A DNA stretch of 5,933 nucleotides from a virus (lineage: Duplodnaviria > Heunggongvirae > Uroviricota > Caudoviricetes). A model generated the notes under the pieces. The model did not search any database. It was not told the DNA's origin and saw only the letters and a list, made by a program, of their open reading frames with translations. Numbering within the stretch: position 1 is the stretch's first letter; each line of letters begins with the position of its first letter. A program made the translations under genes and the position numbers. The DNA is taken from the IMG/VR virus record IMGVR_UViG_2713896780_000020; one strand, written 5' to 3'. Shown here in pieces: positions 4,116-5,933 of this stretch.

Positions 4116-4165
4116 NNNNNNNNNNNNNNNNNNNNNNNNNNNNNNNNNNNNNNNNNNNNNNNNNN
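4116..4165. other. Block of 50 N (masked or unknown bases)
   Basis: Read directly from the sequence. Confidence 0.95.
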
Positions 4166-4235: not shown

Positions 4236-4390
4236 GGTGTGGCCCCTTGTGTAGTAAGTTGTGAAAACTCACCATCCAGAGCTGCGAAACTGTGGGTGGC
4301 GAGACGTACGAGGTTCGCAGTACCGGCTACACAAGAACCCGGCCCGACCGAAGTCGGCCCCGTACGCCCCGCCATAATTCTGACGCGAAA

Positions 4391-4440
4391 NNNNNNNNNN
4401 NNNNNNNNNNNNNNNNNNNNNNNNNNNNNNNNNNNNNNNN
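4391..4440. other. Block of 50 N (masked or unknown bases)
   Basis: Read directly from the sequence. Confidence 0.95.
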
Positions 4441-4465: not shown

Positions 4466-4765
4466 TTACTGGTTCAGAAAAAAATCAAAAACCTTGTCAA
4501 TGCGTTGCAGCAGCTCTTGCTGTATTGCTTCCGGCGTTTCCGGTTCGCCTGGTGCCTCCAACGTCGCGCAGAAATCGGCGATTTCATGATGGAGTGTCAG
4601 GCGAATGGCAGGAGCCGTGGTTCTGGCGTGCTCCAGCTCATCCAGCAGTGCCAGCACAGCAGACGGCGAGAGCGTTGCGCGAAACGCCAGTAATTTTTGA
4701 TGCGTTGCCATTCGTTGAAGGTCAGTTGCCAGTTCGCGTAATTCCTGGTGGTTGATGGCGCTCAT
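4466..4765 (-). CDS. Hypothetical early protein, 99 aa
   Basis: ATG at 4765-4763 overlaps the TGA stop of the upstream ORF (ATGA). Charged, helix-like composition (MSAINHQELRELATDLQRMATHQKLLAF...). The overlapping plus-strand ORF 4447-4755 is Pro/Arg-rich and looks like a shadow. Confidence 0.65.
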   Translation of the reverse strand: MSAINHQELRELATDLQRMATHQKLLAFRATLSPSAVLALLDELEHARTTAPAIRLTLHHEIADFCATLEAPGEPETPEAIQQELLQRIDKVFDFFLNQ

Positions 4766-5007
4766 GCTCTGGCTTCCTTCAGTAGCTGGTTAAACATGTT
4801 GGTAAGTGGATTGCCGCACCCGAACGGCATCGGGTTTATCTGGTAAGAAAAGCGACCGCCTGTTTTGCGCTCTTTTCTTATGACTGAACCGCTGCGCCAG
4901 AGTCGGCGTAACTCCGCATTAATGGCTGTGGTTGGGGTATTCAGTGCTGCGGCGATTTCTCCACCGCTACACCCCGGATTGGCAGCGATATAATCCAGAA
5001 TGGTCAT
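4762..5007 (-). CDS. Putative winged-helix DNA-binding protein, 81 aa
   Basis: ATG at 5007-5005 overlaps the upstream TGA (ATGA). The sequence ILDYIAANPGCSGGEIAAALNTPTTAINAELRRLWRSGSVIRKERKTGGRFSYQI has a helix-helix-helix then beta-hairpin layout typical of small winged-helix regulators. Fold assignment is inference. Confidence 0.6.
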   Translation of the reverse strand: MTILDYIAANPGCSGGEIAAALNTPTTAINAELRRLWRSGSVIRKERKTGGRFSYQINPMPFGCGNPLTNMFNQLLKEARA

Positions 5008-5207
5008 CTGCGTGACTCCTGTACCTGTCGGATAAGGTTCACCTGCACCACATTCGTGGCGCAGAAGTAAGTGCCGTCAGTGAGATAGATGTGATGTGCA
5101 TCCTTTTCTGAACGGTGTTTGTCGATTGTGGTAATCAGGCGTTCGTCGACTTCGTATTCACGTCCTCTGGAGGTAAAACGAACGACAGGAAAATGCTTAA
5201 TTGCCAT
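5004..5207 (-). CDS. Hypothetical early protein, 67 aa
   Basis: ATG at 5207-5205 with a strong AAGGAGG Shine-Dalgarno 5 nt upstream; stop overlaps the next start. First gene after the 86-bp spacer 5208-5293. Confidence 0.65.
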   Translation of the reverse strand: MAIKHFPVVRFTSRGREYEVDERLITTIDKHRSEKDAHHIYLTDGTYFCATNVVQVNLIRQVQESRR

Positions 5208-5293
5208 TACGCCTCCTTGGCGTATGCGAATACCTCCGCGAATGCGGATTGTTTTTACATTTTCTTATTTAACCTGTGGTTTTATTTGCTCTG

Positions 5294-5407
5294 TTATTCG
5301 CCAGTGAAAAAGCGTTCAATCTTTTTTACTGAATGAATAATTCGCATAATCCCAATGGCGCAGGCCACAGAAATAATCAGAACAAGCCATGAGATAAATA
5401 TACTCAT
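5294..5407 (-). CDS. Small single-pass membrane peptide, 37 aa (MSIFISWLVLIISVACAIGIMRIIHSVKKIERFFTGE); not in the ORF track
   Basis: ATG at 5407-5405 overlaps the TGA stop of the 80-aa ORF (ATGA); GGGGAA about 6 nt upstream; TAA stop at 5296-5294. One hydrophobic span of about 17 residues followed by a basic tail. Confidence 0.45.
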   Translation of the reverse strand: MSIFISWLVLIISVACAIGIMRIIHSVKKIERFFTGE

Positions 5408-5646
5408 GCGATATTCCCCAGCTTATACGGTTCAATATGTTCCCCGCATTCTGCGGCACAGATTAGCTCGGAAAGTTCGTTAAGTGCATCCAGATCATCA
5501 GCGTAAAAAGCCACGTCATACAGACTCCGGATTGCCCTGGTCAATGAGTCACGGGCTGCACGTTCAGCATGAGCGCCTGATGCACTTAAGCGAAAATAAA
5601 AACGCTCAAGTGCTTTGTTGATGAGTGTTTTATATTCTTTGTCCAT
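5404..5646 (-). CDS. Hypothetical early protein, 80 aa
   Basis: ATG at 5646-5644 with AAGGGTG about 7 nt upstream, 11 nt after the TAA of the upstream ORF; stop overlaps the start of the 37-aa peptide ORF. Confidence 0.6.
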   Translation of the reverse strand: MDKEYKTLINKALERFYFRLSASGAHAERAARDSLTRAIRSLYDVAFYADDLDALNELSELICAAECGEHIEPYKLGNIA

Positions 5647-5657
5647 TGCAACACCCT

Positions 5658-5933
5658 TTAATCTGCTTTCTGAATTTTAGCTTCTGAATCCATGCAAATA
5701 ATTTCGATATAGGGTTCATTGCCATTAGCCTGGCGCGCTTTTTCAGCTTTGCTAATGATTTCTCGTACGGTCTGGTACGGAAGTTCCACAAGCAGTCGCG
5801 TGCCGTTCAGATAAACGTAAGTGGCTTCGTCGGCTCCGTTTTTACCCGCCGGAGCCACTCCATCAATAGCGGATGCGCGTAATAACAGTTCACCGCGAAA
5901 ATCAATAAAACGGATAAATACACCTTGTGCATG
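5658..5933 (-). CDS. Hypothetical early protein, partial (5' end probably beyond the window)
   Basis: The minus frame is open from the window edge (5933) to TAA at 5660-5658. The ORF track starts it at a GTG (5858) that has no convincing ribosome-binding site, so the true start is probably upstream of the window. Confidence 0.45.
   Translation of the reverse strand, partial: HAQGVFIRFIDFRGELLLRASAIDGVAPAGKNGADEATYVYLNGTRLLVELPYQTVREIISKAEKARQANGNEPYIEIICMDSEAKIQKAD

Follow-up and report, generated by a model that had tools for sequence, protein, structure and literature searches.

The 37-codon open reading frame (ORF) described here is best explained as a genuine early gene of P88-like Peduoviridae that is translationally coupled to the gene before it and whose product would be a small membrane protein (N-terminus outside, C-terminus inside) serving the phage as a non-essential accessory factor; this explanation, taken as a whole, is given a probability of about 0.5. 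The element is of an ordinary kind: an uncharacterised small phage membrane protein that is already publicly annotated. Added here are evidence of selection on the frame, a wider family, an exchangeable DUF4754 partner and a covarying hairpin that always accompanies the gene. The window is the whole stretch of DNA analysed (5,933 nucleotides). The ORF, read from 5407 to 5294, translates as MSIFISWLVLIISVACAIGIMRIIHSVKKIERFFTGE.

Features of the window around the small gene. Positions are those of the whole window; residues are those of the predicted product. TM, transmembrane.
Feature	Location	Strand	Basis or remark
37-codon gene (P88 gp07 / WP_000021656.1 family)	5294..5407	minus	ORF and translation, public annotation, selection
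ATGA junction: DUF4754 TGA (5406-5404) overlapping small-gene ATG (5407-5405)	5404..5407	minus	read directly
Shine-Dalgarno-like GGGGAA within the 3′ end of DUF4754, 6-7 nt 5′ of the ATG	5414..5419	minus	
Upstream DUF4754 gene, 80 aa	5404..5646	minus	predicted three-helix bundle and flexible C-terminal tail
Spacer, 86 bp, from the small gene to the next gene	5208..5293	minus	first half A-rich, second half with hairpin
Hairpin UCCGC-AUUC-GCGGA, then GG (sense strand)	5233..5248	minus	
Downstream gene, 67 aa, phrog_3459	5004..5207	minus	function unknown
Gene before DUF4754, 3′ part, phrog_3800	5658..5933	minus	function unknown; continues beyond the window
Predicted TM helix	~residues 2-21		followed by an amphipathic, net-positive cytoplasmic tail (residues 22-37)

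The small ORF is almost certainly a real coding gene. A frame of 37 codons is not in itself beyond chance, since the window contains 80 ORFs of at least 25 aa; the conservation of this one is. The sample comprises 221 loci, reduced to 79 distinct sequences, which were found through the neighbouring gene, relatives of the peptide or a DNA motif of the spacer. The contig scan with DUF4754 as query gave 2 loci; relatives of the peptide were found by tblastn and by an exhaustive HMMER scan. The frame is intact, with 37 or 41 codons, in 71 of the 79 distinct sequences, and the ATGA overlap is present in all 79, including the classes in which DUF4754 identity falls to 31-40%. In the E. coli clade, this frame has a pN/pS of 0.25 and the other two sense frames have values of 1.45 and 0.94; those of the flanking genes are 0.06 and 0.16. 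Conservation of the frame and a synonymous substitution pattern in related prophages had been proposed in the earlier note as a check on the ORF, and both are borne out by these values. The antisense frame that uses the same third codon positions also has a low value (0.29), because of this shared third-codon geometry, but it is interrupted by stops in the window. A 47-aa alternative ORF lying over the small gene in another frame (5316-5459, minus strand) was considered and rejected as non-coding, its pN/pS being 1.45.

Selection is also visible between the most distant members. When deep classes are compared, pN of the peptide is 0.20-0.28 and synonymous sites approach saturation (pS 0.5-0.8); for most of these pairs, DUF4754 has a pN of 0.36-0.53, above that of the peptide. 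Judged from sequence comparison, the small gene is among the better conserved genes of the region, and this conservation relative to its neighbours implies a function under selection. The exhaustive HMMER scan of 1.84 billion representatives retrieved only the peptide's own family, including relatives of 41 aa. Identity within the family is 47-86% (47-68% for the 41-aa relatives); among the 41-aa relatives, peptides with 54-68% identity stand beside DUF4754 proteins with 35-40%. On the contigs of the relatives the layout recurs: the small gene overlaps an 80-aa DUF4754 gene by 4 bp and is followed by ~80 bp of spacer. The family pattern is M-S-x-F-x-S-W…A-I-G…R-I-I…K-x-I-E-x-[FL]-F-T-G-[DE]; residues M1, S6, W7, L10, G19, I23, I24, K28, I30 and F34 are invariant.

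The C-terminal tail is less uniformly kept. It is damaged by frameshift or truncation in 8 of the 79 distinct sequences (~10%), either by gain or loss of 1 nt in a run of A6 or T5, giving 45-aa forms, or by a stop at codon 31; one further copy, in a frameshift-rich record, is broken early. Indels that disrupt the tail were found in 5 of 85 loci, versus 0 of 85 for the neighbouring genes, so the constraint on the tail is weaker than its conserved motif suggests. Some of these indels may be homopolymer sequencing errors. In the isolated phage Chuche, codon 31 is a stop and the peptide, truncated in its tail, has 30 aa; as this phage is viable, the full-length peptide is not essential for propagation.

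The window was assigned by megablast to P88-like prophages (genus Xuanwuvirus, Peduoviridae, related to P2) and is found with 100% identity in E. coli O145 chromosomes. Of 5426 complete E. coli genomes, 1368 contain a 1.2-kb region that includes the small gene. The genes are arranged on one strand in the order cox, DUF4761, phrog_3800, DUF4754, small gene, several other small genes and the gpA replication endonuclease; this order, from cox to gpA, identifies the region as the early lytic operon. The gene family found downstream of the spacer differs among related phages (e.g. at the loci designated L092 and L093). The overlap of start and stop codons, the plausible Shine-Dalgarno sequence and the 86-bp spacer described in the earlier note were all recovered as listed in the table. 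The three-gene coupled unit proposed there was retained in part: the genes are tightly packed (11 nt between the end of the phrog_3800 gene and the start of DUF4754, then the overlap), but an overlap exists at the last junction only.

Other features of the window were recorded. Two further minus-strand genes, one at 4466-4765 for an Ead/Ea22-like protein (phrog_4144; the Pfam match is weak and below cutoff) and one at 4762-5007 for a MarR-type winged-helix protein, also start in 4-bp overlaps; coupled junctions are thus common in this operon. At 4292-4379 (minus strand) there is a strong, full-length match to the C4 antisense RNA family of Rfam (RF01695, 83.2 bits, E = 6.8e-16). The match precedes the gene annotated 'derepression protein' in related loci, a layout like that of the immI region of phage P1. 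It is flanked by two masked runs of exactly 50 N each (4116-4165 and 4391-4440), which give X in the ORF translations there.

The small gene has been annotated independently by PGAP and by the authors of the P88 sequence. The RefSeq entry from E. coli is WP_000021656.1 ("hypothetical protein"); in phage P88 the same gene, with 100% identity over 37 aa and the same position and overlap, is gp07 ("membrane protein", YP_009113050.1), and other sources use the label "prophage membrane protein". The protein is also recorded in public sources for Salmonella and Shigella, and phage phiSM of Citrobacter rodentium (strain DBS100) encodes an identical peptide. The ORF had been called unannotated, which holds for some records but not for those just named. 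In RefSeq phage 520873 (NC_049344), for example, the gene is intact and is not annotated. RefSeq phage 503458 (NC_049341) has multiple frameshifts in DUF4754 and in the small gene and is therefore a low-quality sequence or a decayed prophage. This E. coli-type prophage region is also carried, with 97-99% identity, by NZ_JBQPOM010000071.1, a contig of 226 kb whose title, Vagococcus sp. WN89Y, would make it a Firmicute; contamination or a mislabelled assembly is the likely cause. Literature searches on DUF4754, WP_000021656, the peptide sequence and fil/dhr of phage 186 retrieved no papers, and the search on Xuanwuvirus retrieved passing mentions only.

Translation of the small gene is probably coupled to that of DUF4754. 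At all loci examined, the small gene directly follows DUF4754 with a 4-bp overlap, and this universal adjacency and overlap argue for coupled expression. A G- or purine-rich Shine-Dalgarno element is found in every lineage (GGGGAA, GGGAAA, GAGGAG, GAGGTGG or AAGGGG), and the DUF4754 C-termini that these elements encode differ. The upstream 80-aa protein matches Pfam PF15946 (DUF4754) with an E-value of 2e-54, and homology to DUF4754 holds for the gene in this position down to 31% identity. Its AlphaFold model consists of three helices (pLDDT 88). Structural and sequence searches for neighbours of DUF4754 gave nothing significant: the best Foldseek E-value is 1.8, and the best PDB sequence match is a designed repeat protein.

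The two genes can nevertheless be separated by recombination. Locus L093 combines a DUF4754 of the window type (84% identity) with the peptide, spacer and next gene of L092, a locus with only 40% identity in DUF4754. Between L092 and L093, identity steps from ~50% to 100% exactly at the junction of DUF4754 and the small gene (locus position ~5000), and past this joint it remains high across the spacer and the gene that follows. The joint shows that alleles are exchangeable, and the case for an obligate co-adapted complex is weakened. Proteins of 103-116 aa that look like natural fusions of DUF4754 and the peptide (P0052-P0107) were rejected as such: they are frameshift read-throughs into the non-coding 47-codon frame, and most come from single Logan or ENA contigs. 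Production of a fusion by programmed -1 frameshifting was rejected as well, no conserved slippery heptamer being found ahead of the junction.

The product is very probably a membrane protein with the N-terminus out and the C-terminus in, as predicted from its composition. The single hydrophobic helix and basic tail noticed in the earlier note are apparent from the Kyte-Doolittle maximum (2.68 in a 19-residue window, residues 3-21) and from the charges of the tail (4 K/R versus 2 D/E). The N-terminus is uncharged and every K/R follows the helix; as all net positive charge is C-terminal, the positive-inside rule would place the tail in the cytoplasm. The 41-aa forms have further basic residues (R, K or H) at the C-terminus. 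AlphaFold predicts one continuous helix over residues 2-34 (pLDDT 91.8). Residues 22-35 of the tail are strongly amphipathic (muH 0.72, a value matched by 2% of shuffles). Two elements of the product are conserved: a common helix face formed by the small residues S2, S6, S13 and A17, and tail positions R/K22, I23, I24, K28, I30, E31, F34 and T35, which include the cytoplasmic motif K-x-I-E-x-F-F-T-G-E. Searches of Pfam, PHROG, NCBIfam and PADLOC with the peptide gave nothing significant (best Pfam E = 0.19). A lipoprotein or signal peptide was considered and rejected: a charged n-region is absent, and in relatives C16 is replaced by F or M and position -1 by V, I or L, neither being conserved as a lipobox cysteine or an AXA site would be.

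The hairpin of the spacer accompanies the gene. The block TCCGC-N4-GCGGA, followed by GG and preceded by an A-rich run, is present in all 96 loci first examined; outside it, 50% of spacer sites are variable and indels occur. Compensatory changes (C-G to U-A) were found at two different pairs of the stem, in 17 and 4 loci, and two G.U wobble variants pair in the sense-strand RNA only. Stem positions are paired in 99.3% of cells, versus 36-63% in controls with the partner slid. A scan of viral contigs for the DNA pattern, made independently of any protein, gave 120 loci; of these, 118 extend far enough upstream to be assessed, and in every one the small gene precedes the motif by 13-60 nt (mostly 38). 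The hairpin is retained where the downstream gene belongs to a different family.

The stem is of 5 bp, with -6 to -8 kcal/mol for the centroid structure. No U-tract follows it, the sense strand continuing with GGUAUUCGC, GGGAUUCCC or GGGCUUCAC, and the hairpin was not called in a terminator scan of the minus strand. On the plus strand it scores as terminator-like (TCCGCGAATGCGGA then TTGTTTTTAC). The equivalent slot of the early operon is occupied by annotated terminators, also with a GC-rich stem of 5 bp, in phages P2 (after gene B) and 186 (tR1, after dhr). The bases after the stem are GGGCTTC in P2, GGGCATTC in 186 and GGGCTTC, GGGATTC or GGTATTC in P88-like phages. A T-run comes next in P2 (TTTTT) and 186 (TTTT) but not in the P88-like spacers, and the loop is of 6 nt in P2 and 186 but of 4 nt in the P88-like hairpin. 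Since the T-run is lacking, efficient intrinsic termination is unlikely. By analogy of position, the hairpin would be the counterpart of the operon punctuation of P2 and 186; its present role may be that of a weak terminator or a pause site, or it may be an element for RNA processing or stability.

Several known systems resemble the small gene or its product in part. Like the peptide, type I toxins (Hok, Ldr, TisB, DinQ, Ibs, TimP) have fewer than 50 residues, one hydrophobic helix and a terminus that is polar or charged, and the earlier note drew attention to this resemblance. The product is indeed a small hydrophobic membrane peptide, but the features that define a type I module were not found. 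No promoter-like site was detected between 4400 and 5933 on either strand (shuffles predict 2.0), and no Rfam match or antisense RNA at the small-gene locus; the terminator-like hairpin of the plus strand would stop a transcript ~40 nt short of the ORF. The gene is embedded in a same-strand operon, its start overlapping the upstream stop, and thus does not form its own transcription unit; unlike type I toxin genes, it is coupled and has no long structured 5′ leader. No homology to Hok, Ldr, TisB or other toxin families was found with Pfam or among the 1.84 billion representatives scanned with HMMER. A type I toxin-antitoxin layout is therefore rejected. The gene also lies outside the lysis cassette, its place being in the early operon, after cox and ahead of replication gene A, so the product is not a holin.

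The division inhibitors lambda Kil, Rac KilR, DicB and 186 Fil show no family relation to the peptide in Pfam or PHROG, and the Kil-like function suggested in the earlier note would be a positional analogy only. The nearest counterparts in position are fil and dhr of phage 186, two small, overlapping, non-essential genes that close the promoter-proximal early block and behind which comes a spacer bearing a hairpin of 5 bp. The 186 record annotates fil as a cell-division inhibitor (it blocks division on overexpression) and dhr as a host-replication inhibitor. Fil and Dhr have no sequence similarity to the peptide, Fil being unrelated, and no TM helix (maximum hydropathy 1.26 and 0.49); no equivalent TM peptide was found in scans of the P2 and 186 early regions. 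In architecture, the peptide resembles regulatory small inner-membrane proteins of bacteria such as AcrZ, MgtS, MgrB and division inhibitors of the SidA type, which bind a larger membrane protein (review PMC12648545). The likeness (one TM helix and a short conserved cytoplasmic segment) is one of architecture only: these proteins have no homology to the peptide, which differs in being phage-borne. The small-residue face and the tail motif would fit a partner-binding mode of the AcrZ/MgtS type, by analogy.

In the favoured explanation, the gene would be transcribed within the early lytic operon that starts at cox. Ribosomes would terminate at the UGA of DUF4754 and reinitiate at the overlapping AUG, helped by the Shine-Dalgarno sequence located in the DUF4754 gene. 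The resulting peptide would form one helix, with residues ~2-21 across the inner membrane, the N-terminus outside and residues 22-35 lying as an amphipathic segment on the cytoplasmic face. The gene and the hairpin ~45 nt downstream would travel as a unit and would mark the end of the accessory block next to the promoter, where P2 and 186 have their terminator. As a non-essential accessory factor, the peptide would be produced soon after infection or induction. Rather than forming a generic pore, it would probably contact a partner at the membrane (DUF4754 or a protein of the host) in a sequence-specific manner, helix to helix or through its tail. Specific contact is favoured over generic membrane damage because of the conserved face and tail motif. 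That the contact serves a host-directed accessory role, as suggested by position and analogy, is held tentatively, at somewhat less than an even chance.

Given the strict adjacency, the real partner could be DUF4754 rather than a host protein. In the form of a stoichiometric complex, in which the tail of the peptide tethers the acidic three-helix bundle of DUF4754 to the inner membrane as an anchor or subunit, this reading is rather unlikely: the invariable adjacency and the 4-bp overlap, conserved while DUF4754 diverges to 31% identity, speak for it, as does a reading of the sequences in which the basic amphipathic tail could complement the acidic C-terminal half of DUF4754, but the alleles are interchangeable at the L092/L093 joint, which falls at the gene boundary, the peptide is better conserved than its supposed partner and the apparent fusions in databases are frameshift artefacts. 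A bolder version of the host-directed reading, to be regarded as unlikely, takes the peptide and hairpin as a self-contained early-gene cassette, mobile by recombination and representing a new class of effectors that bind a specific host inner-membrane machine, with the hairpin setting the dose of peptide. The small-residue face of the TM helix and the tail would then be the binding surfaces, candidate targets being transporters, proteases or, as for SidA, proteins of the divisome, and the hairpin would be a processing, stability or regulator-binding signal kept by compensatory evolution without a U-tract.

Action on the membrane itself, by a peptide like a type I toxin or a holin that depolarises or permeabilises the inner membrane and shuts down the host, is quite improbable. 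Size, single hydrophobic helix and charged tail are typical, in outline, of such peptides; specific contact is indicated instead by the conserved small-residue face and the conserved motif on the cytoplasmic side, the gene is coupled inside an operon and outside the lysis cassette, with no promoter on either strand and no antisense RNA, and no match to Hok, Ldr, TisB or other Pfam toxins, nor any relative beyond its own family, was found in the searches described above. Small inner-membrane phage proteins often serve as exclusion factors, and a peptide that blocks DNA entry or development of competing phages during lytic growth would agree with the dispensability of the full-length gene for plaque formation in Chuche. 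This role is nonetheless very unlikely, as the gene lies in a repressed early operon in which no promoter was found, nothing suggests expression in the lysogen and PADLOC gave no match. Hardly credible is a protein without function, the frame being kept by an RNA or DNA constraint or the act of translation being what matters for downstream expression. The damaged tails in ~10% of distinct sequences and the low pN/pS of the antisense frame (0.29) would be in line with this; however, stops within the window break up that antisense frame, 54-68% amino-acid identity persists with synonymous sites near saturation, conservation is focused on specific residues and the stop codon lies 38-45 nt before the hairpin, beyond the reach of a terminating ribosome.

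For annotation, gene calling is inconsistent among records, some of which lack the gene, and the entries of 'long DUF4754' are artefacts.

Given its presence in the 1.2-kb region of 1368 of the 5426 complete E. coli genomes, its mention in public sources for Salmonella and Shigella and its occurrence in C. rodentium phage phiSM, the peptide is one of the commoner uncharacterised small membrane proteins of enteric pathogens. Its function, once found, would show how a P2-type phage acts at the host membrane early in lytic growth.
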